NCBI GenBank assembly: GCA_964016885.1
Contig: OZ024752.1
Coordinates: forward strand, 26,722,001 to 26,786,000
Length of the DNA: 64,000 bases
DNA from: Eledone cirrhosa
Lineage: Eukaryota
Reading direction: 5' to 3'
Shown here: in pieces, positions 993-61,201 of the stretch
Layout: each line of letters begins with the position of its first letter
Position numbering within the stretch: position 1 is the stretch's first letter
The notes under the pieces: model-generated
Database searches by the model: none
What the model saw: the letters and a program-made list of their open reading frames with translations, nothing else
What the model was told of the DNA's origin: nothing
Program-made: the position numbers and the translations under genes

Positions 993-1721
993 TAAGTATG
1001 CATGTATACGTACATACATATATGTATACAGACGTACAGTAGCATGCACATATATATATATATATATATATACATATATACATACATATGCATACAGGTA
1101 CACATACATATATGCACGTATCAGTTTAGCGGCGCTAACGTCGCTTTGTTCGTTTGTAAACAAACTGAACAGCCTGAATTTATGCCATACGGTGTTAAGG
1201 CAACCACGTCACCTTTTTGTTCAACACTGACACAGGAACGATGTACTAGTTTCAAGCTTGTTAGCTATCATCAGCACCGTTTACCCATCTGCCAGATAGT
1301 TGAACGTTCGAAAGTATATACTTTCCTTATGAAAATTAACGGCTGAGCAGCCTAATTTGCATATTGAGTGAGTTAAATCGGTCAGGCATACCGAAAACGA
1401 TAAATTGAAACAAAATGAAAACGAAATTTCATTTCTCACTCTTAGTATGGCACTTACTTAAATGTAAGTATGCATGTATACGTACATACATATATGTATA
1501 CAGACGTACAGATGGGTAAACGGTGCTGATGATAGCTAACAAGCTTGAAACTAGTACATCGTTCCTGTGTCAGTGTTGAACAAAAAGGTGACGTGGTTGC
1601 CTTAACACCGTATGGCATAAATTCAGGCTGTTCAGTTTGTTTACAAACGAACAAAGCGACGTTAGCGCCGCTAAACTGATACGTGCATATATGTATGTGT
1701 ACCTGTATGCATATGTATGTA

Positions 1722-1754
<33 letters not shown>

Positions 1755-1870
1755 GTGCATGCTACTGTACGTCTGTATACATATATGTATGTACGTATAC
1801 ATGCATACTTACATTTAAGTAAGTGCCATAATAAGAGTGAGAAATGAAATTTCGTTTTCATTTTGTTTCA
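993..1870. mobile_element. Family A hammerhead retroelement: antisense ~1.1 unit plus sense partial unit, joined at CAG microhomology (1509-1511)
   Basis: Same unit as 42727-49180 (6-bp indel); hammerhead motifs at 1237-1281 (-) and 1519-1563 (+); flanked by TA/CA repeats. Confidence 0.85.
1519..1563 (+). ncRNA. Type I hammerhead ribozyme (family A)
   Basis: aacggtg-CTGATGA-t agct aaca agct t-GAAAC-TA-GTA-catcgtt: stem I, core, stem II and palindromic stem III (ACTAGT). Confidence 0.82.
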
Positions 1871-4552: not shown

Positions 4553-4561
4553 CATATTTAT

Positions 4562-7500
4562 TAAAATAACAGATTAAAGTTTAAGCAAAGAATCGCTGCT
4601 TTCACCCTTAACGGGATCTTCTGAAACTAACAAAGTCAATCTGTAAACGCAGAACTGGATATTTCAAACGTTGCAAACGGAGGAAGACAGGAAGACGATA
4701 CTTTGGTTCGTGGTAACGTTCGCTGGCAAAGAACGGGAAAAAACGAATATAATACGTCATTAATAGGAGCGGTGAAAAACAATTACGCGCAAAGACAGAA
4801 CCACGTTTATGGTATAAAAGAGGTCATAGACTAATGTTCTCTTAGGTGGTGCATGGAGACGTTCTCTGGCAATGAACATAAAAAACGAAGATAATACGTC
4901 ATATGTGGAGCATAGAGAACAATAGCACGCAAAGACAAAACCACGTAAATTGTATAGCAGAAGTCGTAAACTAATATTCTAACTAGGAGACCGAATGAAT
5001 CTCCGCTACAAAGTTAAGACCAGAGTAAATAAATACAATACAGACGTAATAGAAATAAATAAATACATACACGCAAACAAATACGTACATACACAAGCAA
5101 ACGCAAAACCTTACCATAGGTATACAAAACCACGCACATATAATATATGTGTGTGTGTATGCGTGTATACAAATAAAAAAATAATTATATAAACGTATAT
5201 AAATAAATAAATACGTATATAATAAGCGCACACACATACCTACATGTAAATACACGAATGTTCGGAGACGTAAGTCAACCAAAACATGAAGTACACATAT
5301 ACACACACTCTACATACGTACGAACCTGCATACTCACACAGACGCAAAACTCCCGTATACACATAGCCAAACCATATGTACCAGAATATATAAAAATTAT
5401 ACACCATAACAATCAAATATACGTACGAGAAAGTACACGTACCTTCACAAAACATACGGGTAATATATACTTACCTATGCAAATAAGTAAAGGTAATAAC
5501 AAAACATATACTTAGCTCCCACATCAAGACGTAAAATATCCACGTATAGATAGTACTATCCGTTAGGGTATAGCGTGGGTCTGTAATACAGGAAAGTTTT
5601 GTGCAATTTATGTCTACAAGCCGAAATTGCCTCATATTTTTTGTTTAAGATGTGGTCTGTGGCGTAGAGTATTTCCAGGGCCTCAGCGGCGCAGAGGTCA
5701 CATGGTCTTTTATTTCCGTTATACGATCTAGCCCTAGCTAGGATCTCCCAGTGTAACTTATATTGGGTGTGGTTGTCTTTTAGACTCCAGATATAAGCTG
5801 AAAGTGACGTCATATTCCTTCTGAGAGGGTAACGAAAAGAATGGGTATGCATGTAAAGACGCTGCTTGAATCTATTGGCGGTTAACCCTATGTAGGCCCT
5901 ACGGGACGTGGGTGTTACAACCTTACATTTGTAGATAATGTTACTAGAGAAGCATTTCCGGTATAGGGGCAATCAACCCGATTCCTACAATTACAGTTAG
6001 TACTATATATAGGGTTGCACGTGTTCCTACGGCTAGGTAGTTTAGCTAAATTTGAAGCTGTGATGTTATGTGCAAGGTTAGGAGTCGTAGAGTAAGAAAT
6101 TTTAATAGTATTTCTATTAAAAATTTTACTATATTTATGTGTAGGGGGAAAATGCTTCGTAATAAGGGAAAGAAAGATCTTAGCTAATGGTGTGGCCACC
6201 TCCATATTATATGGTGGGTTATACCAACAAATGCGACGGGATCTATTTCTTCTAGGTCTATTTTCGTACTCTGTATATGCTACCTTATCGACAAATCCAC
6301 TTCGAGCAAGAGCTTCATTGTAATAAGTGGAATGGTCGTTGAAAATACGCTCGTTGGTGGAAAGACGGGAAAGCCTCAACGAAACGTTTCTTACCGGGTT
6401 CTTGGTTATGCTGGCAGGATGATTGGGATGCTTACTTATGTAATTAAGCGTATCATTCGGCTTTCTATACGGGTAATACAACCCATTCAATAAATTGAGT
6501 GTAACGTCGAGGTAATTAACGACCGAGAGATTGCCCTCAACCTGTATAGAGAGGTTGAAGCCTTTAAAGAAGGCTGTGAGTTCTTTTCTGAACCTGTCGC
6601 AAGCACGAGGTCCGCACTTAGTCATGGTCAAAAGACCATCGTCACGGTACAAACCACCGCCCGCGTTGGGGAATTCGTCCTTGATAGAGAAAAGAAGGAA
6701 AAGGCCGATAAGATCAGTAACCTCCGCAGAATCACTGGCGCCCCTACTCACGTCGAATGGGGTACTATCGGATTTTTTAATCCAAATAGAGTCGTCGAAA
6801 TTAAGGGGAAATGGTAAAGTAATGGAGGAGTAGTAATTGTTGATGTCGAATTGGATAAAACGGCAATATTCCTTGTTACATATGCCGTTGAACCAATCAA
6901 TCACCGCGAAAGAATTGTTCCACAGTGCAAGAGGGGGCCAAACTACTAATTTCAGGTATAATTCTATCAAGAATCGTTTTACTAAGTCTACCTAAATCGG
7001 ACTTCGTAGGGTTAATAAGCCGATAGAGAGGTTGTTCGGAAAATTGGATTTGTGATCCTTCAGGGTAAAGTGGGGAGAAATAGGGTCCAGAGGTTTGGTC
7101 CGGTCCAGGATGTTGAGATCAGATGTGATTTTACACCCAGCATCGTTGATTTCATTGATGACGCACCGATTAGTTTTACGGTAATCCTTAGTTACAGCAT
7201 TATGTAGTAGTTGATGGTAAGTACTGCGCTCCACTTGATATAGGTTGCCAGTTTTGTCGGAATGGACGTGCACGGCATTAGAATCCTTAATAGAACGAAT
7301 TCTATTCTTCAGGTCTAGCTGGAAGGAATTGCTCCTATTCCGAAATTTGATACTCCGAATGAGTTCCAAGACATCATTTTCGACGGGTAGCAATGCTGGG
7401 TAACACGGGGGGTTATTATAGGTTTTAAATCCTAATTTATCCTGTTTGTTGTCTGCTTTTCGCGGATTATCGATATAAAAGGCACGCCAACGCAACCTTT

Positions 7501-7608
7501 TAATGAACGCGTGTTTTCTGTATCAGAAGTTTTAGGTATGTTTTCCTGCTTGGTACGGGTATGTTCTTTGTAGAAATATTCAGATGTTGTTTCTGCATGA
7601 TGAATAAT
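4562..7608 (-). mobile_element. Decayed near-full-length Penelope-like element (RT + C-terminal GIY-YIG endonuclease), inserted in (TA)n
   Basis: Frameshifted ORF pieces: [48 protein letters not shown], linker CNCRNRVDC, IIYKC..YIGLT..FKQRLYMH; 3' non-coding region ~4562-5555. Confidence 0.93.
5556..7598 (-). pseudogene. Penelope-like RT/GIY-YIG ORF disrupted by frameshifts and stops
   Basis: Track ORFs 6992-7495, 5915-6970 and 5556-5972 are consecutive pieces of one protein in different frames. Confidence 0.9.
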
Positions 7609-7751: not shown

Positions 7752-7851
7752 CATATATATATATATGTACATATATATATATGTACATATATATATATAT
7801 GTACATATATATATATATATATACATATATATATACATATATAAAACATAC

Positions 7852-7886
<35 letters not shown>

Positions 7887-7895
7887 CATATATAC

Positions 7896-7978
<83 letters not shown>

Positions 7979-7987
7979 CATATATAC

Positions 7988-8042
<55 letters not shown>

Positions 8043-8198
8043 CTTATATACATATATACATATATATATATACATATATATATACATATATATATACATA
8101 TACACATATATACACATATATATATATACATATATATATACACATATATATATATATACATATATACATATATATATACATATATATACATACCCAGA

Positions 8199-11100
8199 GT
8201 GGCCGCCGCTGACACCAGACCAGGTGTCATACCGACAGCCATTACTGGCACCCCAAAAGTCACACCAGTGCTGCTGCTGAATGTCAGGGGCCTGGTGAAA
8301 CTCAGCAACATGAGCAAAATTTCCTACCTGGGAGACTTAGCCATAAGCAATCAAGCACTATGCATGGCACTAACCGAAATGCGCCTGACAAGCAGTATAG
8401 CAGATGCAGAAATACATATACCGAAATATACTGTATTTCGTTCGGACAGGAAGGAGAGAACTCATGGTGGGGTTGCTCTGTATATCCGTGAAGATGTCAC
8501 ACCAATTGTACTGTTGACACATTCATACTCAGTCTGTGACACACTGATAATACATATGAAGCAACTACAGACGGTAATATGTGTCACATATCGGCCGCCC
8601 GATGCCCCCAGTCATGAGGGCAAATTTGAGCATAGCCTAAGTAGGATAGAAGAGGTCCTTGACAAACTGGACCAGGGTCTCAACATCCTACTGCTGGGAG
8701 ACTTCAACCTACCAAAGGTCAAATGGCCTGAGGGCCACCTCCTCCCTGGAATGACGTCAATAGAACAGAGACAGACGGAATCCCTGCTGGCCCTCACACA
8801 CAGGCTGTTCATGGAGCAAGCAATACTCCTCCCAACAAGAGGCGAAAATGTCCTGGACCTCTATTTTACAAACAACGAAGTGCTCATCCACAATGTAAAG
8901 GTGACACCAACAATTCTCTCGGATCATAACTTAGTAGAGCTAATGATATGTGGTCCAAGAGAACCAACAGAGACAAAACATCCAAGAAGCTCCGGGACGC
9001 TATCCAACCTTAACTTCTACAAGGCTAACTGGAAAAAGATTAAGAGTGAAATCCGGAAGCAAACATGGGGTGAAAACACCGCCACACAAGACACTAACAC
9101 ACAATTTCAACACTTCATGACAGCGATACACACCATATGCAAAAAGTGTGTCCCGGAGAAAGAGGCAAACAGACACAAAAATCTTATTCCCAGAGATAGG
9201 AAAATCCTTATGAGACGTAGAACTAAACTCTCAAACCAGTTGAATAGTCAACAAAACCAAAACAAGAAGGAATCCTATTTGAAACGTGCACTACTTGACA
9301 CCGAGATTGCACTCAAACTTTCACATGAGAATGAGAGGGCAAAGAAAGAGAACAGGGCCATAGAAAACATTAAAACAAACCCTAAGGCCTTCTTTAAATT
9401 TGCAAAAGAAACTGCCTCAGTACACTGCAAGATTGGACCACTCTTCCACACGGACGGTTCATTAACCGAAAATCCCCAAGAGATATGTGAAATACTGAAC
9501 GAACAGTACAAAAGTGTCTTCACATGTCCACTGAGGCACATGCAAATAACGAAGCCAGAGGAGTTCTTTGATGCCACAACACTACATCAAGAAATGGCAA
9601 CCATCAACCACATAGACATAACGGAGGAGGATGTGGTGTACGCCATTGATGAAATTAGAACAGACTCGGCTGCTGGACCTGATGGATTCCCAGCAGTTCT
9701 CCTAAAAATATGTAAGCGGGCCTTAGCAACTCCACTGAAGATGCTCTTCAGAAGCTCCTTGGCTAGCGGTGTACTACCCAGGGAGCTGAAAGAAGGCACA
9801 ATATGCCCTATCCATAAAGGAGGTAGTAGAGCGGAGGCCAAGAACTATAGGCCAGTCTCCCTGACGTCGCATATCAGTAAGGTCATGGAGCGAGTCGTCA
9901 GAAAGAAACTAATCACTTTCCTCGAAGAAAATGACCGCCTGACTAGCACGCAACATGGCTTCCACCCAGGAAGAAGCTGCCTTACACAGCTGCTACATCA
10001 CTACGACTGGGTACTGAGACAACTACTAGACAGCTCACATGTGGACGTGATATATCTTGACTTTGCGAAGGCCTTTGACAAGGTCGACCACGGAATGATA
10101 TGTCACAAACTACACGGACTCGGCATAACTGGAAAAGTAGGTGAGTGGCTGCATGGCTTCCTAAGGGACAGAAGCCAGGCAGTCGCAGCAAATGGGGCCC
10201 TCTCGAGGGAAACACCGATAGCAAGTGGGGTGCCCCAGGGGACAGTCCTGGGACCACTACTGTTTTTGGTGGCTCTCTCGGACATGCCCTCTGTGGTGCA
10301 TGCAACAACATCCCTCACTAGCTATGCTGATGACACTAAGGTAGCACAGGCAATCAAAAACCCGGCTGACGCTGCCCTCTTACAGCAGGATCTGGATGCC
10401 ATATACAGATGGGCGGAAGAAAACAACATGCAGTTTAATGCTGGCAAATTCCAAGCCCTACAATACAAACTTGCAAACACAAATATAGTGGAACACAGCT
10501 ACACAGGACCAGGAGGGACCGATATCCCCGTGTCAAAATCGATACGAGACCTGGGCATAGACATGAACGATGATGCATCTTTTTCTTCACACATCATGAA
10601 AGTGGCGACAACATGTAGACGATTCGCTGGCTGGATCTTGAGGACTTTCCTTACAAGAGATCGAGACACCATGTTGACAATGTGGAGGACTTTTGTCCTA
10701 AGCCGCCTGGACTACTGCTCCCAGCTGTGGTCACCCCATAGTGTCAAACTAACCACGGAGCTTGAGGCAATCCAGCGAAGCTACACCAAGAGGATTGCCA
10801 AGATGAGGGAGACAAGCTACTGGGAGAGGCTAAAGGAACTGAACCTCTACTCCTTGGAGCGAAGACGGGAGAGATACGCAGTGATCTACATGTGGAAAAT
10901 CCTAGAGCGACTAGCACCAAACTTTGGCATTGGGAGCTGGACCAACCGTCGAACAGGACGTCACTGTGTGGTGCCAAAGGTCCCGTCTTCCACATCTAGA
11001 ATAAGGAGCAGGTATTGCAATAGCCTCGGATTCAAGGGCCCTCAACTCTTCAACAGGCTGCCGAGGCATCTGAGAGACTTGCATGACGTGGAGGTGGATG

Positions 11101-11234
11101 TCTTTAAGAAACATCTCGACACCTTGTTATCCAGGATCCCGGATGAGCCCACAGCAAGACACAAGGGAAACCTAAGGGCAGCAGCAACAAACTCCCTCCT
11201 ACACCAGTGGCCAACCTATACAGGCTGGAGATAA
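8199..11234 (+). CDS. LINE ORF2 (APE endonuclease + reverse transcriptase), CR1/L2/Jockey group; uninterrupted, likely 5'-truncated element spanning ~8192-11318
   Basis: 1011-aa ORF with [72 protein letters not shown]; A-rich 3' tail into (TA)n. Confidence 0.96.
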
Positions 11235-12370: not shown

Positions 12371-13640
12371 CTATAGCACCTCTTTGTAGACGATATTGCG
12401 TGTCATCCCTTGAGGAGAGTAAGCAAAAAGTTCATTCCTGCTCCCTGCGCGGGAACAGGCAACATAAAGTTGGCCATGGGAGAAGCGTGGCTCCCCCAAA
12501 TGGATGCCCGCCACCGACAATGTTTGCCCTTGTGACTTGTTAATGGACATGACAAAACATGGTCTCACCGGGAATTGGGATCGCCGGAAATCGAACGGGA
12601 TATCTGACGCCGAGGGGAAAAGTTTCATCCTTGGAATGAAAACATTCTCCCCTCTTCCGCACCCCGTTACAATGGTGGCCTCAATCAAGTGGGTGTCAGT
12701 GACTTGACGACCATGCGATTACTGTTGCACTGCTTTGGTGGACGCAAGTTCCTTATTAGCATAATGGGACAGCCAACCCTAAGCTTAATAATGTGAGGTG
12801 GGAGCCCTGGGTGCTCAAGGAGATTTAATAACTCAACCGGATAATTAACGATATAGTCGGGGTCTGATTTGAAGATGTGCTCTTTACCGGGAATCTTCTC
12901 AATCAGCTGCTCGTTAATAAAATTAACCATGGTATTTTTCGGAGCAAGGATGGCTCTTTCGCTGAGCCAATCGAGGTTTTTAAAGTTAGATGAGACATTA
13001 GGAAAAACTGCTTCCCAAAGGTCAGAAGGGCTGCTCACAATGTTGCACAGGGTGTCGATTGCTATGCCGCCCTTGTCATCCGCAGGGATCATGCCCTCAC
13101 CAAGTGCTAAAATGTTCTGTGCTGCAGACATGTTGTCACCATGCAAATGAGCACGCATATTTGTGCTCAGGTACAAACTATTCACCTGGAGCCACAACAT
13201 GGACGACTTAAGACAGGCACGCACTTCATCAGCTCTTGTCCATTTGGGGATGACAGGCAGCGTTTTCCGAAAATCCCCTGATAGCAGAAGGGTTACGCCA
13301 CCCATAGGAGCCGTAAAATCCCTAATGTCTTTCCGGGCCCTGTCCAATGCCTCAAGGGAACCCTTGTGTGCCATTGTGCACTCATCCCAAACAATGAGGC
13401 AACATCTTTTGAGACCCAGAGCTTTGTGTGAACTCTTGCTGATATTGCATGTTGGTGTCTCAGTTTTTACTAAATCCAAAGGGAGTATAAAGGTTGAATG
13501 TGCTGTCCTGCCTCCCGGCAGCAAAGTAGCAGCGATCCCGGACGATGCAACGGACAACGCAACTTTTTTCTCCTGACGAATCTTAGCGAGAATCAAATTC
13601 CTTACAAAAGTTTTTCCGGTACCCCAGGAGCGTTTTTATT
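12371..13640 (-). pseudogene. Helitron Pif1-family helicase domain, frameshifted
   Basis: ASSGIAATLLPGGRTAHS, WDECTM, LLSGDFR, RAILAPKN, LRVGCPIMLIRNL, RSQFPV..MSINKSQGQTL..HGQLYVACSR. Confidence 0.92.
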
Positions 13641-13664
13641 GGGGGGATCAGGGGAATTTTTTTT

Positions 13665-14393
13665 TTACCTTGAGGTATAACCAGTAAGTAGTTCCTTCAA
13701 AGGCTCTGGTGGTTCCGTAAGAGGGGGCAAGGTGACCTTACCGTTTAAGCAGCACATTGCAGGTGGCTCCCCAGCCCACTTTGTAGCATTGCAGAATTGG
13801 CAATTGAAGCGCATCTCGCCTATATTTATGTCAGAGCGCATCGAGTAATTAACGTTTTGCTCATACTTGAAAGCCCGTAGGTGCCAGTAAGGGCTGTTAG
13901 GGCTCGTCACACCGCGTGCAGCTTCTCGCCGTCGACTGTTACGCTTGAACGTAGAACATTGGTCGTGTGGTTGGTGGGAAGGTCTGGCAGCAATAGCAGA
14001 AGCAACATTTGCAATGCTAATGGACCGCCCGTCTGCACCTTCAGAAGCCATGGAAGTAGTCATAGCCGCAGCGTTCGTAGGAAGGCGAGCCGTCCGTTGT
14101 TTTAAACGTTCCAAAGACCTGGAAGCAGCATTAGTCGCATCGTTTCTAGCCAGGCGCTTCGACCTTTGTTCACGGCTCTCTGAAGCCCTGGAAGAAGCCT
14201 GGTATGAAGCAATTTTGGCTAGGCGTGCGGTGCGCTGTTGGAAACTTTCAGCGGCTCGACATTCTGCTGAACGTAAGGCTGTCTGTGAAAGTCTTGAAGC
14301 ATTTTCCTCAGAGGACTCGTTTGCTATAGTAGCCTTTTGCGCCACTGCTGACGCGGTATGTCGACTGAGGCAACTTCTCTTTTTAGGTGGCAT
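13665..14393 (-). pseudogene. Helitron RepHel N-terminal region (MPPKKR, coiled repeats, Cys-rich Zn-finger-like motif); Rep/HUH domain deleted
   Basis: CQFCNATKWAGEPPAMCCLNGKVTLPPL is typical of animal Helitron N-termini; the helicase starts <100 bp downstream. Confidence 0.8.
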
Positions 14394-14866
14394 TTTATGT
14401 CCAAAAGAAAGGGTGGAAGTTACTTCTACATAAAAATTGACTTTGAAAGTCTACTGACTGTTTATGAATATTGTTATTGTTGTTGTGATACAAATGTTAG
14501 TAAGTAAATGGGTTTCGAAAAATAAAGGGTGAAAGTTACTTCAACATAAAAATTGACTTTGAAAGTATAAGGCTGATAATTGAATGTAAAAAAGATTGGT
14601 AAGAAAGGCCCCCCCCCCCCCAAAAAAAAATGTACAGGTATTTGTATGTATGTGTGTATTTTTATGTCTAAAAGAAAGGGTTAAAGTTACTTCTACAGAA
14701 AAATTTAGTTTGAAAGTGTAAGGCCGATGTGTGTGTAAATTAAGTGACAGGTATTTGTATGTATGTGTGTATATGTATCTATGTGTGTATGAAAAAGTAA
14801 GGCCGATGTGTGTGTAAATTAAGTGACAGGTATTTGTATGTATGTGTGTATATGTATGTATGTGTG

Positions 14867-43301: not shown

Positions 43302-43708
43302 TATACATATGCATACAGGTACACATACATATATGCACTAAGAGTGAGAAATGAAATTTCGTTTTCATTTTGTTTCAATTTATCGTTTTCGGTATGCCTG
43401 ACCGATTTAACTCACTCAATATGCAAATTAGGCTGCTCAGCCGTTAATTTTCATAAGGAAAGTATATACTTTCGAACGTTCAACTATCTGGCAGATGGGT
43501 AAACGGTGCTGATGATAGCTAACAAGCTTGAAACTAGTACATCGTTCCTGTGTCAGTGTTGAACAAAAAGGTGACGTGGTTGCCTTAACACCGTATGGCA
43601 TAAATTCAGGCTGTTCAGTTTGTTTACAAACGAACAAAGCGACGTTATAATAAGCGCCGCTAAACTGATACGTGCATATATGTATGTGTACCTGTATGCA
43701 TATGTATA

Positions 43709-43743
<35 letters not shown>

Positions 43744-44190
43744 GTGCATGCTACTGTACGTCTGTATACACATATGTATGTACGTATACATGCATACTTA
43801 CATTTAAGTAAGTGCCATACTAAGAGTGAGAAATGAAATTTCGTTTTCATTTTGTTTCAATTTATCGTTTTCGGTATGCCTGACCGATTTAACTCACTCA
43901 ATATGCAAATTAGGCTGCTCAGCCGTTAATTTTCATAAGGAAAGTATATACTTTCGAACGTTCAACTATCTGGCAGATGGGTAAACGGTGCTGATGATAG
44001 CTAACAAGCTTGAAACTAGTACATCGTTCCTGTGTCAGTGTTGAACAAAAAGGTGACGTGGTTGCCTTAACACCGTATGGCATAAATTCAGGCTGTTCAG
44101 TTTGTTTACAAACGAACAAAGCGACGTTATAATAAGCGCCGCTAAACTGATACGTGCATATATGTATGTGTACCTGTATGCATATGTATA

Positions 44191-44225
<35 letters not shown>

Positions 44226-44672
44226 GTGCATGCTACTGTACGTCTGTATACACATATGTATGTACGTATACATGCATACTTACATTTAAGTAAGTGCCAT
44301 ACTAAGAGTGAGAAATGAAATTTCGTTTTCATTTTGTTTCAATTTATCGTTTTCGGTATGCCTGACCGATTTAACTCACTCAATATGCAAATTAGGCTGC
44401 TCAGCCGTTAATTTTCATAAGGAAAGTATATACTTTCGAACGTTCAACTATCTGGCAGATGGGTAAACGGTGCTGATGATAGCTAACAAGCTTGAAACTA
44501 GTACATCGTTCCTGTGTCAGTGTTGAACAAAAAGGTGACGTGGTTGCCTTAACACCGTATGGCATAAATTCAGGCTGTTCAGTTTGTTTACAAACGAACA
44601 AAGCGACGTTATAATAAGCGCCGCTAAACTGATACGTGCATATATGTATGTGTACCTGTATGCATATGTATA

Positions 44673-44707
<35 letters not shown>

Positions 44708-45154
44708 GTGCATGCTACTGTACGTCTGTATACACATATGTATGTACGTATACATGCATACTTACATTTAAGTAAGTGCCATACTAAGAGTGAGAAATGA
44801 AATTTCGTTTTCATTTTGTTTCAATTTATCGTTTTCGGTATGCCTGACCGATTTAACTCACTCAATATGCAAATTAGGCTGCTCAGCCGTTAATTTTCAT
44901 AAGGAAAGTATATACTTTCGAACGTTCAACTATCTGGCAGATGGGTAAACGGTGCTGATGATAGCTAACAAGCTTGAAACTAGTACATCGTTCCTGTGTC
45001 AGTGTTGAACAAAAAGGTGACGTGGTTGCCTTAACACCGTATGGCATAAATTCAGGCTGTTCAGTTTGTTTACAAACGAACAAAGCGACGTTATAATAAG
45101 CGCCGCTAAACTGATACGTGCATATATGTATGTGTACCTGTATGCATATGTATA

Positions 45155-45198
<44 letters not shown>

Positions 45199-45642
45199 CA
45201 TGCTACTGTACGTCTGTATACACATATGTATGTACGTATACATGCATACTTACATTTAAGTAAGTGCCATACTAAGAGTGAGAAATGAAATTTCGTTTTC
45301 ATTTTGTTTCAATTTATCGTTTTCGGTATGCCTGACCGATTTAACTCACTCAATATGCAAATTAGGCTGCTCAGCCGTTAATTTTCATAAGGAAAGTATA
45401 TACTTTCGAACGTTCAACTATCTGGCAGATGGGTAAACGGTGCTGATGATAGCTAACAAGCTTGAAACTAGTACATCGTTCCTGTGTCAGTGTTGAACAA
45501 AAAGGTGACGTGGTTGCCTTAACACCGTATGGCATAAATTCAGGCTGTTCAGTTTGTTTACAAACGAACAAAGCGACGTTATAATAAGCGCCGCTAAACT
45601 GATACGTGCATATATGTATGTGTACCTGTATGCATATGTATA

Positions 45643-45686
<44 letters not shown>

Positions 45687-46130
45687 CATGCTACTGTACG
45701 TCTGTATACACATATGTATGTACGTATACATGCATACTTACATTTAAGTAAGTGCCATACTAAGAGTGAGAAATGAAATTTCGTTTTCATTTTGTTTCAA
45801 TTTATCGTTTTCGGTATGCCTGACCGATTTAACTCACTCAATATGCAAATTAGGCTGCTCAGCCGTTAATTTTCATAAGGAAAGTATATACTTTCGAACG
45901 TTCAACTATCTGGCAGATGGGTAAACGGTGCTGATGATAGCTAACAAGCTTGAAACTAGTACATCGTTCCTGTGTCAGTGTTGAACAAAAAGGTGACGTG
46001 GTTGCCTTAACACCGTATGGCATAAATTCAGGCTGTTCAGTTTGTTTACAAACGAACAAAGCGACGTTATAATAAGCGCCGCTAAACTGATACGTGCATA
46101 TATGTATGTGTACCTGTATGCATATGTATA

Positions 46131-46165
<35 letters not shown>

Positions 46166-46612
46166 GTGCATGCTACTGTACGTCTGTATACACATATGTA
46201 TGTACGTATACATGCATACTTACATTTAAGTAAGTGCCATACTAAGAGTGAGAAATGAAATTTCGTTTTCATTTTGTTTCAATTTATCGTTTTCGGTATG
46301 CCTGACCGATTTAACTCACTCAATATGCAAATTAGGCTGCTCAGCCGTTAATTTTCATAAGGAAAGTATATACTTTCGAACGTTCAACTATCTGGCAGAT
46401 GGGTAAACGGTGCTGATGATAGCTAACAAGCTTGAAACTAGTACATCGTTCCTGTGTCAGTGTTGAACAAAAAGGTGACGTGGTTGCCTTAACACCGTAT
46501 GGCATAAATTCAGGCTGTTCAGTTTGTTTACAAACGAACAAAGCGACGTTATAATAAGCGCCGCTAAACTGATACGTGCATATATGTATGTGTACCTGTA
46601 TGCATATGTATA

Positions 46613-46652
<40 letters not shown>

Positions 46653-47096
46653 CATGCTACTGTACGTCTGTATACACATATGTATGTACGTATACATGCA
46701 TACTTACATTTAAGTAAGTGCCATACTAAGAGTGAGAAATGAAATTTCGTTTTCATTTTGTTTCAATTTATCGTTTTCGGTATGCCTGACCGATTTAACT
46801 CACTCAATATGCAAATTAGGCTGCTCAGCCGTTAATTTTCATAAGGAAAGTATATACTTTCGAACGTTCAACTATCTGGCAGATGGGAAAACGGTGCTGA
46901 TGATAGCTAACAAGCTTGAAACTAGTACATCGTTCCTGTGTCAGTGTTGAACAAAAAGGTGACGTGGTTGCCTTAACACCGTATGGCATAAATTCAGGCT
47001 GTTCAGTTTGTTTACAAACGAACAAAGCGACGTTATAATAAGCGCCGCTAAACTGATACGTGCATATATGTATGTGTACCTGTATGCATATGTATA

Positions 47097-47138
<42 letters not shown>

Positions 47139-47582
47139 CATGCTACTGTACGTCTGTATACACATATGTATGTACGTATACATGCATACTTACATTTAAG
47201 TAAGTGCCATACTAAGAGTGAGAAATGAAATTTCGTTTTCATTTTGTTTCAATTTATCGTTTTCGGTATGCCTGACCGATTTAACTCACTCAATATGCAA
47301 ATTAGGCTGCTCAGCCGTTAATTTTCATAAGGAAAGTATATACTTTCGAACGTTCAACTATCTGGCAGATGGGTAAACGGTGCTGATGATAGCTAACAAG
47401 CTTGAAACTAGTACATCGTTCCTGTGTCAGTGTTGAACAAAAAGGTGACGTGGTTGCCTTAACACCGTATGGCATAAATTCAGGCTGTTCAGTTTGTTTA
47501 CAAACGAACAAAGCGACGTTATAATAAGCGCCGCTAAACTGATACGTGCATATATGTATGTGTACCTGTATGCATATGTATA

Positions 47583-47613
<31 letters not shown>

Positions 47614-48060
47614 GTGCATGCTACTGTACGTCTGTATACACATATGTATGTACGTATACATGCATACTTACATTTAAGTAAGTGCCATACTAAGAGTGAG
47701 AAATGAAATTTCGTTTTCATTTTGTTTCAATTTATCGTTTTCGGTATGCCTGACCGATTTAACTCACTCAATATGCAAATTAGGCTGCTCAGCCGTTAAT
47801 TTTCATAAGGAAAGTATATACTTTCGAACGTTCAACTATCTGGCAGATGGGTAAACGGTGCTGATGATAGCTAACAAGCTTGAAACTAGTACATCGTTCC
47901 TGTGTCAGTGTTGAACAAAAAGGTGACGTGGTTGCCTTAACACCGTATGGCATAAATTCAGGCTGTTCAGTTTGTTTACAAACGAACAAAGCGACGTTAT
48001 AATAAGCGCCGCTAAACTGATACGTGCATATATGTATGTGTACCTGTATGCATATGTATA

Positions 48061-48095
<35 letters not shown>

Positions 48096-48542
48096 GTGCA
48101 TGCTACTGTACGTCTGTATACACATATGTATGTACGTATACATGCATACTTACATTTAAGTAAGTGCCATACTAAGAGTGAGAAATGAAATTTCGTTTTC
48201 ATTTTGTTTCAATTTATCGTTTTCGGTATGCCTGACCGATTTAACTCACTCAATATGCAAATTAGGCTGCTCAGCCGTTAATTTTCATAAGGAAAGTATA
48301 TACTTTCGAACGTTCAACTATCTGGCAGATGGGTAAACGGTGCTGATGATAGCTAACAAGCTTGAAACTAGTACATCGTTCCTGTGTCAGTGTTGAACAA
48401 AAAGGTGACGTGGTTGCCTTAACACCGTATGGCATAAATTCAGGCTGTTCAGTTTGTTTACAAACGAACAAAGCGACGTTATAATAAGCGCCGCTAAACT
48501 GATACGTGCATATATGTATGTGTACCTGTATGCATATGTATA

Positions 48543-48577
<35 letters not shown>

Positions 48578-49024
48578 GTGCATGCTACTGTACGTCTGTA
48601 TACACATATGTATGTACGTATACATGCATACTTACATTTAAGTAAGTGCCATACTAAGAGTGAGAAATGAAATTTCGTTTTCATTTTGTTTCAATTTATC
48701 GTTTTCGGTATGCCTGACCGATTTAACTCACTCAATATGCAAATTAGGCTGCTCAGCCGTTAATTTTCATAAGGAAAGTATATACTTTCGAACGTTCAAC
48801 TATCTGGCAGATGGGTAAACGGTGCTGATGATAGCTAACAAGCTTGAAACTAGTACATCGTTCCTGTGTCAGTGTTGAACAAAAAGGTGACGTGGTTGCC
48901 TTAACACCGTATGGCATAAATTCAGGCTGTTCAGTTTGTTTACAAACGAACAAAGCGACGTTATAATAAGCGCCGCTAAACTGATACGTGCATATATGTA
49001 TGTGTACCTGTATGCATATGTATA

Positions 49025-49059
<35 letters not shown>

Positions 49060-49175
49060 GTGCATGCTACTGTACGTCTGTATACACATATGTATGTACG
49101 TATACATGCATACTTACATTTAAGTAAGTGCCATACTAAGAGTGAGAAATGAAATTTCGTTTTCATTTTGTTTCA

Positions 49176-49180
<5 letters not shown>
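42727..49180. mobile_element. Family A hammerhead retroelement array: ~1.3 antisense units plus 12 near-identical sense units of 478-488 bp
   Basis: Periodicity from the repeated ORFs: 482,482,488,488,482,484,486,478,482,482,482; junction ~43337; one hammerhead per unit. Confidence 0.95.
43502..43546 (+). ncRNA. Type I hammerhead ribozyme (first of 12 sense copies; predicted cleavage after GUA at 43539)
   Basis: aacggtg/catcgtt stem I, extended by ttcaac..ctggca / tgtcag.gttgaa; CTGATGA; agct-aaca-agct; GAAAC-TA-GTA. Confidence 0.85.
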
Positions 49181-49209
<29 letters not shown>

Positions 49210-49908
49210 CGTTTCTGAATTTGTTTAGCAAGATTCTTTATCTGAAAACGTGTGTTGAAACCGATATTGTTATACTTTGGGAGGGTCATGTTGCCAATAA
49301 GAAACACACGCACCAGTTGCCTTCACTTCAATTTATTATAATAAATTTATAAATTTAGGAATTTATAAATTTCCGGTTGGTTGGTTGGTTGGTTCCACAA
49401 CAAGATGATTGTTTATAACCAACCAACCAACCGGAAATCTATAAATTCCTGAATTTATAAATTTATTATAATAAATTGAAGTGAAAGCAACTGGTGCGTG
49501 TGTTTCTTATTGGCAACAATGACCCTACCAAAGTATAACAATATATATACATATATATATATAAAATATAAAACGAAAAATCAGTGATGCATCTGAACTC
49601 AATTTATTGTGTGTTACAATTGTTTCGCCGGCAGACAGCTCGAAACACGATCATTGTGTGGATCTGTCTCATTCTGGATCTGCAGGTTCGTCGGGCACTT
49701 CTAATAATTTCGGATCAAATTTTCTCCGTGGGGTGTTAGCGTAAAAATTAAAACCCTCTTCGCTCGTCCTGCTATTGGCTGTTGTTCTTCTACGTCATCA
49801 TAAGTTATGGCCAAAAGGTACAATCAAACTGACCATCAGCTGTCCTTTTTCCTGCCACACTTCAATGAATCCCTGGTGGGTTTGGTAGTTCACACGTCCA
49901 CGCGCGTA

Positions 49909-50344: not shown

Positions 50345-53300
50345 AATAACAACATCCGTACGCATATACTCCCGCTCCCACAGGACACTTATAAAACTTT
50401 AAAAAACACCTTTAAAGAGGAGGTGGGTCCCCCCTGCGTCGGGCCCATTAACCGCGTCCTCCTAAAAAACTACCCTACCCCCTCCCCAAACACCCACACA
50501 ACTCCAAACACCCCAACCACACAACACACTGATGCCCCTACACTTCCACAAACCACCACCCCACCCAACAACCCATCCCCCACCCTCATGGAAATTGTGC
50601 AGCCCGATACCCGGGACGCAGAGAGGTAAGTGCCTTTTCTCTTCACCCACATAGCAATGCTAAGAGTAGGCTGTTTAAATGCGCGTGGCCTGGGCTCAAC
50701 TTGGAAGCAAGCAATGCTTCTAAATGACCTCAGGTCACAACGTATAGATGTGATGGTTATTTGCGAGGCCCGGATGAGCAACGTGGGACAGCTGGCCCCC
50801 ACCTTTGATGACTTTGAGATGCACGCATCTCTCTGTCAGCCCGGGGGTGTGGGTGGGGTTGTCGTCCTGCTGAAAAAACATCTGGGTCTCGCAACACAGA
50901 TGGTACATTTGGACCCGGAGGGTCGACTAGTGGTTCTAAACCTTGGCAGTGGTGAAGGCGGAGCGTTTAGGTTGGTAGCCGCCTACGGCCCTTTCGGGTC
51001 AATGCGGCCGGACTTCTTCTATCTTCTGGAGACTTTTCTAGGGACGTCCCGCTCCTTGCTATTAGTGGGGGACTGGAATGGTATGCACGCTGGGACTACG
51101 TAGGGGCATGTCCCGATAGAGAGGGGTGTAATAGCCTCACAGTGTTAATCGGTCGATTTGACCTGGCCGATAGATATCGACTAGATTTTCCGACTGCGCC
51201 AACCTGTACTTGGGCAAATCGTATCGGATCATCTAGGTCGTACCTAGATAGGTTCTTAGTTAGAATTAAGGATAAGGACTTTTTAATTTGTCCAAAAATG
51301 CGCATGGTTGGCTATTCAGACCACAAGTTAGTGACCTGCATGGTCAACCTTGACAGAACGCATAGGCAGGTACCCGGTTACTGGAAGCTCAACTTGTCCT
51401 TACCGGCAAGTAAGGCTTACAGGGACTGGATAAGCACTTTAGTTAAGGAGCAGTTGACGGGCGCCATCGTCAACAGCAGGTGGTGGGGATCTCTCAAAAG
51501 AGAGATTAGAGTAGTCTCTATAGAATTTAGTAAGGAGTTAGCCTCAAATAGAAATAGGAAGGAAAGGGAGTTGGTAGATAGTGTAGAAGAGGCAATTAGA
51601 AGCGGCGACGTGGTCAGAGTGCTAGCGTCGAGAAGGGCCCTGGGCCAGTTCTTCGACGCGAAACACGAAGGCTGCATCGTCCGAAGCAAAATACGTGCTC
51701 TGGGAAACGAGGGGACCAAAGCTGTTAGCTGGGCCCGCGTGACAGAAGCCAAAATAGGGAGTAGATCCACTATCCGGTCTTTGCGAGACCAGGATGGACG
51801 GGTGATCCTTGAACCTAAGCAGATGTGCGAGGCTTTTCAAAAGCACTTTGCCAGATTGTTCGGAAGGGGCGGCGAGCCGGTTGGGGAAGTGGACTTCGGT
51901 CCATACCTCGACGGCCTGCCGCGTTTCTCGGACAGGGAGGCGAAGTCCTGCGAGGAGCCGATTTCAGCCGCTGAGATAGAGGACGTGCTGAGCCAATGCG
52001 GCAAACGCAAATCCCCGGGTCTCGATGGTCTTCCATACGAACTGTATCTAACTATGCCGGACTTGTTCCCCGATCTCCTCGAGGCGGTCTACTGCAACTG
52101 GCAACAGAACGGGAGAATTCCCTGTGCTGTGACCAAGGGCGTAGTCACGCTAGTGAGGAAGGACGAGAACAAGGGGGACGATGTAAATAATTTCAGGCCC
52201 ATAACTCTGCTAAATACAGAGTTACAGATTTTGGCCAAGGTGCTAGCAAAGAGATTAGCGCTTGTCGTGGGCAACCTGGTGGGAGATGCGCGGATATGTG
52301 CTATCCCGTCCAGGTCCATCCACGACAACCTCCACCTCATGCGATACATCATAGAGAGGGTTGGGAACGAACCCGGCTTTGGTGGGGCCCTGATCAACTT
52401 GGATCAATCTAAAGCGTTCGATAGGGTCGACCATGGTTACCTGGATGCGGTGCTAGCGGCGGCAGGCTTCGGACCCGTTTTCAGCGGCTGGATCAATGCC
52501 ATGCACAGCAGCCGCATCTGCTCTAGGGTCAAGGTGAACGGCTACCTCTCGGAGCCGTTCGAAATCGCGCGGTCCATCCGACAAGGGTGCCCTCTCTCCT
52601 TCCTTCTGTATGTAATGACTGTAGAGCCACTGCTGCGGAAGTTGGAGTTGTTGCAGGGCATCCCGTTGGAACCGGGATTGCGGAAAGCGAGTGTGCCCAG
52701 GCGCTCACGGCTTTCTGGCAGGCGGACCCGGCTGTCAGTGGAGAATCCACCTCGTCATTCTATAGAGGGCTGGTGGTTAGCAGGTGCGACGACGCCCTCG
52801 GAGAAGCCCTAGGCATGGAGGAAGACGAACTGGCCAACCTGTTCGGTAGGACATTCAGCCCGGGACCCATGGATAACTTCCAGAGGTCCCTGGCCTGGCA
52901 GTGCTACAGAAGGGCTCTGCCCGTTCGAGAAAGGCTCTACAGACACGGGCGCCCGGGTAGGCATCCCTCGAAAAAGATCTGTCCTAGATGCGTGTGCGAC
53001 GAGGAAACCGTTGCACACGCATTGGTACACTGCTCGGGCATTGCCGATCTGTGGGGCTATGTCGAACAACTGCTGTCAAGGGTGGGACCGATCCGGTTGA
53101 CCACCGAGTCTATTGTTTACGATCAAGCCGCCTCCCCTCTTCAAAAAGGAGGGATAGGCGGTGTTTCTGTGCGTAATAGCCATGGCGAAAGAAGTTGTAT
53201 GGTGGACGCGTCTGAAAGGTCTGAAAGACACCTTTCTCTCTGGCCAACAACTGGTCCGTTTCTTCCGATATCATTTCGGAAGAAGGATCAGGATGGAGAG

Positions 53301-53625
53301 AGAAGTGCTGCACCCCAGCCGTTTTTATGAAAGATGGGTGAAAGTGGCGTGAATGGCCCGTGTGAATGGGCCTTCACTCTACATCAGACTATAGGTGAGG
53401 AAGATGAAAGACCAAGGGAGTACCCCTTCTCTGTGCTCCTGAGGAGACGGGTTGCACACGTTTTTTCTATTGAGGATTTTGTTATAAATTTTATTTTGCT
53501 ATATTTTATTTTATTTTTATATTTTGTTATTGCCTCCTCCATATTGAGGACGCCTTGTTATGTAAACTCCCCCCATTGTATTTGTCCCACTTTTTGATGC
53601 CCTGGTGGCAAATAAAAAGAAAATT
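50345..53625 (+). mobile_element. L1/Tx1-clade LINE, decayed (possible ORF1 end, ORF2 EN-RT-CCHC), with internal deletion removing the RT YADD region
   Basis: MLRVGCLNARGL, GDWN, SYLDRF, SDHK, YWKLN, KSPGLDGLPYE, NFRPITLLN, LDQSKAFDRVDH, RQGCPLS, CPRC..EETVAHALVHC; 3' AATAAA. Confidence 0.93.
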
Positions 53626-60744: not shown

Positions 60745-61201
60745 ACAGGCGTACAGTAGTATGTATATATATACATACATGCACACATATAACTCACTCG
60801 ATATGCAAATTAGACTGCTCAGCCGTGAATATGCATAAGGAGGGTATATACTTTCAGACGTTCAATCATCTGGCAGGAAGGTATACGATGCTGACGATAG
60901 CTAATAAGCTTGAAACTAGTACATCGTTCCTGTGTCACTGTTGAACAAAAAGGCCACGGTGGTTGCCTGAACACTGTACGGCGTAATTCGGGCTGTTTGT
61001 TTACAAACAAACCGAACATTATAATAAATGTTCGGTAAACCCATACGTACTTATATATATGTGTGCATGTATGTATATATATACATACTACTGTACGTCT
61101 GTATATATATATATGTATGTACGTATACATACATACTTACATTTAAGTATCAGCCGTGCTAAGACTGAGAAAAGAGATTTCATTTCATTCTTTTCAATTT
61201 A
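60745..61201. mobile_element. Single family A/B-related hammerhead element with short inverted 5' piece
   Basis: Hammerhead 60885-60927 acgatg-CTGACGA-tagct aata agctt-GAAAC-TA-GTA-catcgt; 60745-60790 is the reverse complement of ~61055-61102. Confidence 0.85.

Follow-up and report, generated by a model that had tools for sequence, protein, structure and literature searches.

Metazoan non-LTR retrozymes, as described by Cervera and de la Pena in 2020 (PMC7229834), in a review (PMC7761336) and in a preprint (Li et al., bioRxiv 10.64898/2026.07.22.740005), are noncoding tandem units with a type I hammerhead in each unit, a GC content below 50%, a predicted circle that is strongly self-paired, and multimers. 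Rolling-circle reverse transcription is the route proposed for them (PMC7761336, PMC7229834, PMC4209133), and circular RNA has been shown for the retrozymes of coral, mussel and axolotl. Penelope-like elements (PLEs) are recognised by inverted 5' copies, ends at two sites and a (TA)n target (PMC8557442), and one PLE protein has been shown to nick both strands and to extend them from internal sites (PMC11167929). Element A of Eledone cirrhosa, which has the listed retrozyme features, from noncoding tandem units to multimers, lies in the window, that is, the whole 64,000-nucleotide stretch of contig OZ024752.1 that was analysed. It is a non-LTR retrozyme, an assignment drawn from its PLE insertion signature, the U·U closure of its hammerhead and the Hydra-like PLE found in the same window, and it is most likely the product of one recent insertion event. 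Elements of this class, like the rolling-circle idea, have been described before; this one has an unusually clean form. The whole element, inverted and direct arms together, is noncoding, measures 6.46 kb or 13.4 units and sits within a (TA)n tract, in which a target-site duplication is unreadable. Its parts and immediate neighbours are as follows.

42640..42709, plus strand: flanking short E-family element with its own inverted and direct arm, separate from array A
42710..42727, unstranded: left (TA)n target tract of A
42726..43338, minus strand: inverted arm of A, 613 bp or 1.27 units, from phase 335 round to phase 463 (by sequence comparison with the array)
43337..43338, unstranded: inversion junction of A, with a microhomology of 2 nt (AC)
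43337..49181, plus strand: direct arm (array A), 12.09 units of 478-488 bp each, head to tail, from phase 481 to phase 46
43418..43455, plus strand: predicted hairpin that families A, B, C and F have in common, with TATGCAAATT invariant, immediately 3' of the fixed end phase
43502..43546, plus strand: type I hammerhead motif of unit 1, with predicted cleavage after 43539 (by pattern and stem comparison)
43717..43742, plus strand: (TA)13 tract of unit 1, capping a long predicted hairpin, with 11-16 repeats among the units
46888..46888, plus strand: sole substitution of array A, T>A, in unit 8 at phase 163
49179..49207, unstranded: right (TA)n target tract of A, with AT common to the array end
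49208..49545, minus strand: flanking E-family element, direct plus inverted arm, resembling a palindromic MITE and separate from array A

Counted from 43338, the direct arm has 13 unit starts, namely 12 full units and a 46-bp partial one ending at 49181; TRF returned 12.1 copies with 99% matches, and the count of 12 is that of the assembly alone. The sequence-only reading had placed the array at 43338..49180, and its twelve units are indeed there, but the element is larger, as the inverted arm was missed. In order, the units measure 482, 482, 482, 488, 488, 482, 484, 486, 478, 482, 482 and 482 bp and carry TA tracts of 13, 13, 13, 16, 16, 13, 14, 15, 11, 13, 13 and 13 repeats. Unit alignment bears out the statement that they vary only in (TA)n length and in one base at 46888: without the tract, all 12 are identical save for that substitution. 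With the TA tract set aside, the inverted arm and the array are 100% identical, and the two arms together hold 1 substitution in some 6,100 bases outside the tract (95% upper bound on divergence, 0.08%). The order of the TA lengths is unclustered (5 equal neighbours, p about 0.20), and the proposal that the reverse transcriptase slipped on the UA tract is not needed, later microsatellite mutation or long-read consensus error explaining the changes equally well.

The unit (482 bp, GC 0.35) is noncoding and without LTRs, in a search of reading frames and Pfam; its sole frame, of 139-141 aa, runs from stop to stop across the TA tract and had no match in Pfam, and no ORF of an autonomous PLE (RT plus GIY-YIG between pLTRs) was found in or next to the array. 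The unit is longer than the 150-450 bp of described retrozymes (PMC7229834) because of a 140-nt TA-rich hairpin, and falls inside the 51-972 bp given in the preprint (10.64898/2026.07.22.740005).

The hammerhead motif is present in 12/12 units and in the inverted arm. In unit 1 it has a stem I of 7 bp, the core CUGAUGA at 43509, a U·U-closed stem II of 4 bp and a stem III formed by the palindrome ACUAGU. Cleavage is predicted after phase 202; since the array runs from phase 481 to phase 46, neither of its ends lies at the predicted cut, in agreement with the earlier observation that it begins and ends mid-unit. Positions 10.1/11.1 are U·U, not G-C, a closure that we counted in 14 of the 25 Hydra-clade PLE families of a published set, in the form of a sense-strand hammerhead with CUGANGAU...UGAAAC closure (PMC8557442). 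The stems covary: of 12 pairs, 5 have a change in each partner (four related sequences, from which the structure itself was drawn; 2/500 shuffles). Rfam gave 0 hits over the whole window at the gathering threshold; at E up to 10 the sole relevant row was Hammerhead_HH9 (18.5 bits, E 0.14, below threshold), and the hammerhead pattern had no matches in metagenome scans. The remaining Rfam rows at that limit set the TA hairpin against miRNA families and are taken as chance. Self-cleavage and a circular RNA are predicted for A. Folded as a circle, the plus strand of the unit has a predicted MFE of -156.7 kcal/mol with 68% of bases paired (z -9.3, 25 shuffles), compared with a z of -3.6 for the minus strand and of -5.3 without the TA hairpin. 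The copies run across the cleavage site without a scar in 25/25 cases in the A, B, C and F families, plus 3 in D, and none of 12 inner arm ends falls on that site (partly by eye).

Five sister insertions in the window can be compared with element A.

993..1870, unstranded: A', about 97-98% identical to A, with an inverted arm of 1.09 units ending at phase 463 and a direct arm of 0.76 unit ending at phase 40
31363..33148, unstranded: B, an inverted arm and a direct arm of 3.1 units (about 419 bp each) with star-like divergence, its right end cut by other sequence
38710..40796, unstranded: C, units of 468 bp, 1.8 in the inverted and 2.7 in the direct arm, with two haplotypes
41047..42014, unstranded: D, an inverted arm and a direct arm of 2.2 units (319 bp each), with a hammerhead variant that has a U3:A8 core
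60745..61201, unstranded: F, B-like, a short inverted arm plus a 0.95-unit direct arm ending at phase 45

All 6 hammerhead-repeat loci have the inverted-plus-direct build. Microhomology is found at 5 of the 6 inversion junctions (D and F by eye), B having a 3-nt insert instead, and 11 of 12 outer ends adjoin TA tracts, the exception being the right end of B. The direct arms end at phase 46 in A, 40 in A', 45 in F and the aligned equivalent in C, that is, at all four A/B/C-type loci whose right end is intact (the clustering has a p of roughly 1e-5, with the phase window picked post hoc), and in a second sample one contig stops at phase 46, running into (AT)n. The 3' end of array A, adjoining (TA)n, is therefore not arbitrary, which the sequence-only reading had missed, as it had the link to PLEs. 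The inverted arms end on the outside at phases 463, 463, about 468, about 431 and the equivalent of 46. The hairpin at 43418..43455 is a candidate RT-recognition or promoter signal.

In L1 twin priming a 5' segment is inverted and joined at 1-4 nt of microhomology; unlike such insertions, A has no poly(A) tail or L1 endonuclease site, and its arms exceed one unit and overlap in sequence. With Hydra-clade PLEs (Craig et al. 2021, PMC8557442) A shares the (TA)n target, an inverted 5'-truncated copy and a tandem build, although it lacks an RT-GIY-YIG ORF and has many full-length noncoding units where those PLEs have partial tandems. As in PAc (Poseidon of Anolis; Frangieh et al. 2024, PMC11167929), both strands of an AT-rich target would be nicked and extended, with two nearby internal starts away from the hammerhead cut. 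The PAc sites span a 30-40-nt tail (linear RNA was used); here the distance is about 57-63 nt for A, A' and E, and it varies from 0 to 95 nt among all families. Neither the inverted arm nor the fixed end phase was found in the accessible portions of published descriptions of metazoan retrozymes ('inverted' occurs 0 times in PMC7229834), and our search, in which subscription journals were thinly covered, returned no relevant published analysis of twin priming or target-primed insertion of retrozymes. Snap-back (fold-back) copying was rejected as the source of the inverted arms: that of A' has phases 41-154, missing from its direct arm, and in C the outer inverted unit is not the same in sequence as the direct unit that would have been its template. 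The 'MITE-like' palindromes on either side were likewise rejected as transposon ends of array A; they recur independently at 16345-16455, 23191-23333 and 30887-31282.

Variation within the sister loci also speaks to how the arrays arose. The B units differ at 14-19 sites in all 6 pairwise comparisons (3.3-4.0%), the inverted arm being no farther from the direct units than neighbouring units are from one another, and variants common to units are limited to one site and one TA step. Such star-like decay indicates that B was born as a multimer and was not homogenised. B had been read as an older, more diverged equivalent of A, which holds; the same was said of C, whose units are less diverged than those of B (0-7 mismatches) and form a mosaic of two haplotypes. 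Five linked differences set two of its direct units apart from the remaining three, and at a sixth site the units group in another way, so C did not come from one monomer circle. A satellite grown by unequal crossing-over would be expected to have variants common to neighbouring units in a hierarchy: markers are absent in A, B has a star pattern, and common variants are present in C. Beyond the window, the array A unit was compared with four sequencing runs, giving 6,559 contigs in one, 115 in a second, 2 reads in a third and none in the fourth, the contigs of both contig-bearing runs being pieces of at most 122 nt; no RNA run was listed as carrying the unit. Only 1,368 of the 6,559 are at least 99% identical to the unit, so the rest of the family is more diverse, and uniform loci inside a diverse family point to a monomer bottleneck.

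The window also contains a PLE.

4556..7607, minus strand: broken Hydra-like PLE with RT and C-terminal GIY-YIG, between (TA)n tracts (by sequence motifs)

Its motifs RWR, DKT, CNCRNRVDC (CxCX5C) and YIG fit the description of the Hydra clade (RWK-like, DKT and CxCX5C motifs, a GIY-YIG at the C-terminus, a length of about 3 kb or less and a (TA)n target), a class assignment made by motifs. Fragments of this PLE had no matches in Pfam or PDB searches, their nearest Atlas clusters were RT/HTH_animal, and the protein had no matches in metagenome scans. A decayed 3' hammerhead is probable, by eye, near 4629-4578; the MFE fold is without that structure (z 0.07). The PLE is a candidate for the kind of helper that the hammerhead arrays use, and the array A unit has no alignable similarity to this one copy in the window.

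Identical arms, a fixed 3' end phase in (TA)n, 25/25 intact crossings and the star-like decay of B support a single recent reverse-transcription event on an RNA template that was continuous across the ribozyme site. From the sequence, a monomeric circle, as in the published model, is the best candidate template, and we give an even chance to the fuller reading that A is one recent target-primed insertion by a PLE, probably of the Hydra clade, in which synthesis from one nick went round such a circle about 12 times and synthesis from the second nick 1.3 times. A source array would be transcribed, its hammerheads, paired as dimers by the palindrome ACUAGU, would cut the transcript, and ligation would close the monomer into a 482-nt circle. 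As PLE biochemistry suggests, both (TA)n strands would then be nicked and cDNA would start at internal RNA sites, one fixed near phase 40-46 and the other about 60 nt upstream, near phase 463. In the DNA, the RNA 3' ends of the two arms face outward, the arms join at the 2-nt microhomology, and all crossings of the ribozyme site are unscarred. The TA tract, altered in 6 of 14 copies, would have changed mostly after insertion or in sequencing, and not necessarily by the RT. The earlier claim was that an RT copied a circular RNA about 12 times very recently; the recent single event and the continuous RNA stand, whereas the circle is only a plausible template, since an uncut multimer leaves the same DNA.

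Several published results count against the circle. In PAc, the one PLE reconstituted in vitro, cleavage is dispensable and uncut RNA is the main substrate (PMC11167929), the minimal hammerheads of metazoan PLEs cut poorly, and 8/9 Xenopus dimers stay uncut. The template of a single PLE-driven insertion may instead have been long and linear, an uncut multimer transcribed from another young array and used by twin priming on one RNA, an explanation that we consider unlikely but deserving of real weight. Weak hammerheads would let multimers survive, read-through of a young array of at least 14 units would leave identical DNA, and the mixed haplotypes of C fit the copying of a mixed array. The inverted outer end of A (463) also lies 17 nt upstream in phase of the direct-arm start (481), the simple twin-priming geometry known from L1 work. 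However, serial copying would only shorten arrays, so some step must restore their length; the star pattern of B and the uniformity of A require a uniform source of equal or greater length, and the compensatory stem changes suggest selection for cleavage. Alternatively, a PLE-type insertion that was short at first, with an inverted arm and 1-3 units, could have been expanded later to 12 by unequal crossing-over or re-replication, and the satellite route is preferred in the discussion of the preprint (bioRxiv 10.64898/2026.07.22.740005). Twelve units are an outlier beside sister direct arms of 0.76-3.1 units, units 4 and 5 are both (TA)16, C has variants common to neighbours, and array A carries no markers that could exclude later unequal crossing-over. 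Later expansion is in our view slightly less likely than the linear transcript: the TA-length order in A is unclustered, B is nearly without common variants, so that arrays here are not obviously homogenising, and expansion would need completion within the <0.08% divergence.

Far less probable is assembly of the array by an RT that jumped among separate RNAs, whether cut monomers or different circles. C does hold two pre-existing haplotypes, and a dimeric enzyme (a dimer is predicted in PMC11167929) could carry two RNAs, but the scar-free crossings and the absence of inner arm ends at the cleavage site argue against it, and A would require 13 identical molecules out of a diverse pool. It is equally hard to credit that assembly or read concatemers have produced a false copy number or a false inversion. 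The run contigs are short, leaving the count to the assembly, and tandem and inverted PLE structures are known to upset assemblies; against this, the inversion ends at the element edge with differing flanks, five other loci of different ages have an identical build, the units vary in TA length and one base, and the unit is abundant in independent contig sets.

The origin of animal retrozyme arrays, as circle-copied multimers or by satellite growth, and the enzyme that moves them have both been posed as questions in the literature. The window holds six insertions of different ages, and with their junctions, their end phases and the variants inside each locus both questions can be put to the test by counting loci in one genome; the helper to which it points is a Hydra-clade PLE. 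More tentatively, and with somewhat less than even confidence, the arrays may be direct fossils of rolling-circle target-primed reverse transcription, in which a Hydra-clade PLE enzyme would use both (TA)n strands and two internal sites to copy one ribozyme-made circle for up to 12 rounds; the arrays would then be born full-length, and the helper, only guessed at in the literature, would be named by their insertion anatomy.

The direct arm of array A consists of 12 full units of 478-488 bp each and a 46-bp partial that stops at 49181, within a (TA)n tract. Unit comparison places 13 unit starts from 43338 and TRF gives a copy number of 12.1, which agrees with the sequence-only reading of this array. 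The near-identity of units claimed there also holds, as T>A at 46888 is the sole difference besides the internal tract, which runs (TA)13,13,13,16,16,13,14,15,11,13,13,13 by unit. Outside the tract this amounts to 1 substitution in ~6,100 bases with the inverted arm counted in (95% upper bound 0.08%). That inverted arm, overlooked in the first reading, lies immediately upstream (42726-43338, 1.27 units), is identical to the array save in TA length and meets it at a 2-nt microhomology; the whole insertion therefore measures 13.4 units, or 6.46 kb, and each arm has its RNA 3' end pointing outward into (TA)n. Array A is a real, young and new member of a class of elements already known. Tracts unlike 13 repeats number 6 of 14, versus 1 base changed in 6,100. 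Microsatellites mutate several orders of magnitude faster than bases are substituted, and long-read consensus in (TA)n is error-prone, so the reverse transcriptase (RT) slippage proposed earlier for these lengths is not required.

The six hammerhead-repeat loci in the window all share the inverted-plus-direct build; besides A they are:
993-1870, locus A', inverted and direct arms
31363-33148, locus B, inverted and direct arms
38710-40796, locus C, inverted and direct arms
41047-42014, locus D, inverted and direct arms
60745-61201, locus F, inverted and direct arms

At the junctions the arms overlap by AC, CAG, GAGA, G and TA, except that B has a 3-nt insert instead (D and F by eye). Snap-back copying as the source of the inverted arm was excluded for A' and C. 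Further inverted-repeat pairs adjoin TA tracts at 17217-17634, 35857-37234, 24148-24792, 28513-29113 and 29898-30252, and may be additional insertions built in this way.

By descriptor scan, each A unit carries a type I hammerhead on its + strand (core at 43509 and in all later units), with a predicted cut after phase 202 of the 482-bp unit, 43338 being phase 1. Its stems are of 7 bp (I), 4 bp with a U·U closure (II) and 2 bp (III), the last being the palindrome ACUAGU, a form reported to need dimers (PMC4209133). Rfam called no hammerhead at threshold; below it, HH9 matched with E 0.14. In a comparison of four family members, both sides are altered in 5 of 12 stem pairs, a count reached by 2 of 500 shuffles (slid controls, 0-1). 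This covariation is supportive but short of proof, because the sequences are few and related. Folded as a circle, the monomer gives z -9.3 on the + versus -3.6 on the - strand, and -5.3 without the TA hairpin. The D hammerhead (41047-42014) has a U3:A8 core variant, of a kind noted in PMC4209133, and a 10-nt palindromic stem III; the 319-bp unit of family D gives no alignment to A, B or C.

Array ends are non-random. The direct arm stops at phase 46 in A, 40 in A', 45 in F and the position aligned with these in C, a comparison that leaves out B (end cut by other sequence) and D (unalignable). Under a uniform model, the chance that three further ends lie no more than 5 nt from the first is ~1e-5, with the interval chosen after the fact. 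One contig of X11, a second sample, likewise stops at phase 46, running into (AT)n. Inverted arms stop at 463 (A, A'), ~468 (B), ~431 (F) and the 46-equivalent (C). The same two-site pattern, with sites ~57 nt apart, is seen in a separate family flanking A:
16345-16455, 23191-23333, 30887-31282, 42400-42560, 42640-42709, 49208-49545, family E, short inserts in (TA)n that look palindromic

These have two preferred ends (10 upstream-site and 5 downstream-site matches), and the smallest pieces are 20 plus 11 nt. No hammerhead was found in the E pieces present in the window, and they are probably 3' fragments of a further element of Penelope-like (PLE) type. PLEs are described as having inverted 5' copies, tails and (TA)n targets (PMC8557442). 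With purified PLE protein, both strands are nicked and then extended from two internal sites (PMC11167929). Such internal initiation would explain why array ends avoid the ribozyme site. One block, TATGCAAATT (43418-43455, with equivalents in B, C and F), is invariant within a predicted hairpin, includes the octamer ATGCAAAT and is one of just two alignable between families A and C; it is a candidate promoter or RT-binding signal.

The hammerheads of A, B and F read CUGANGAU-stem II-UGAAAC. Hydra-clade PLEs share this closure in 14 of 25 families (counted in File S2, PMC8557442), whereas the minimal hammerheads of PLEs in general are said to have a highly conserved G10.1-C11.1 in place of the U·U of A (PMC4209133). 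The window also contains a PLE and other elements:
4556-7607, - strand, broken Hydra-like PLE between (TA)n tracts, one stop and one frameshift
7845-11234, + strand, LINE-type endonuclease-RT frame of ~1,000 aa, beginning in a TA tract
25323-26992, - strand, decayed copy of that LINE frame, 84-89%
12685-14450, - strand, Helitron-like helicase fragments, by eye from translation
50630-53330 (+ strand) and 37687-38000 (- strand), additional broken LINE-like RT frames, by eye

The PLE carries the Hydra motifs RWR, DKT and CxCX5C and a 140-bp duplication inside its 3' UTR (4716-4980). Close to its 3' end lies what is probably a decayed hammerhead (~4629-4578, by eye), which is absent from the MFE fold. 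A-type units have no alignable similarity to this PLE, which therefore shows the kind of enzyme present and not the partner.

An assembly or read artefact is highly improbable, since the inversion stops at the edge of the element and recurs at five other loci differing in age. Locus B is the informative control for one event versus stepwise growth: 14-19 mismatches separate each of the six pairs formed by its inverted arm and three direct units, and nearly all variants are private (one substitution and one TA step are shared). Its pieces were thus born simultaneously and then decayed independently, without homogenisation. The three comparable pieces of D differ by 5-11 mismatches. A' has its own variants in both arms, namely a 6-nt deletion, a common subfamily trait in X11, and two substitutions, one of which recurs in all three passes. 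Cleavage-site crossings are unscarred (25 of 25 in families A, B, C and F; 3 in D), and the template was therefore continuous at that site. Later expansion of A after insertion is unlikely; A itself offers no markers for or against it, the order of TA lengths being random (p 0.20-0.22), although its 12 units lie far beyond the 0.76-3.1 of the remaining direct arms.

For the template of A, we give an RNA circle about an even chance. The unit is abundant in contig sets of the organism coded A; in run X1, 1,368 of 6,559 contigs match it at >=99%, and variants reach about half the depth. The searches covered contig sets, which cannot count copies, and one Hi-C run, none recorded as RNA. Runs X4-X14, from ten other organism codes, contain 43-69% of the unit's words, but of the two such organisms aligned to the unit, one yielded no contigs (X4) and the other 2 reads (X23), so any spread across species is putative. 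A monomer bottleneck is needed because loci are uniform while the family is diverse. Recopying of linear RNA would only shorten arrays, and the ribozyme is under apparent selection; all three points favour a circle. A linear multimer is a somewhat unlikely template. It would suit a protein whose main substrate is uncut RNA, as for Poseidon of Anolis (PMC11167929), and ribozymes that are often poor at cutting (Li et al., bioRxiv 10.64898/2026.07.22.740005; PMC4209133). The inverted arm of A starts, in phase, 17 nt upstream of the direct-arm stop, a simple twin-priming geometry for a linear RNA, but hand-off on a circle fits as well. Also counted against a circle is the mosaic C, with two haplotypes: five linked differences within ~100 nt are common to the last two direct units, a sixth site pairs another set, and private substitutions are just 3 in ~2.1 kb. 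A single template does not account for C, which calls for a template of mixed type, for two RNAs or for conversion. Template jumping between RNAs as the builder of the array is very unlikely.

The rolling-circle model has already been published for retrozymes and PLEs (PMC7761336, PMC7229834, PMC4209133). The 2026 preprint of Li et al. links animal retrozymes to PLE pLTRs and leans to local satellite growth. Our search, with most subscription journals outside it, found no published analysis of retrozyme inverted arms or end phases. The value of array A is that it makes the question of mobilisation countable.
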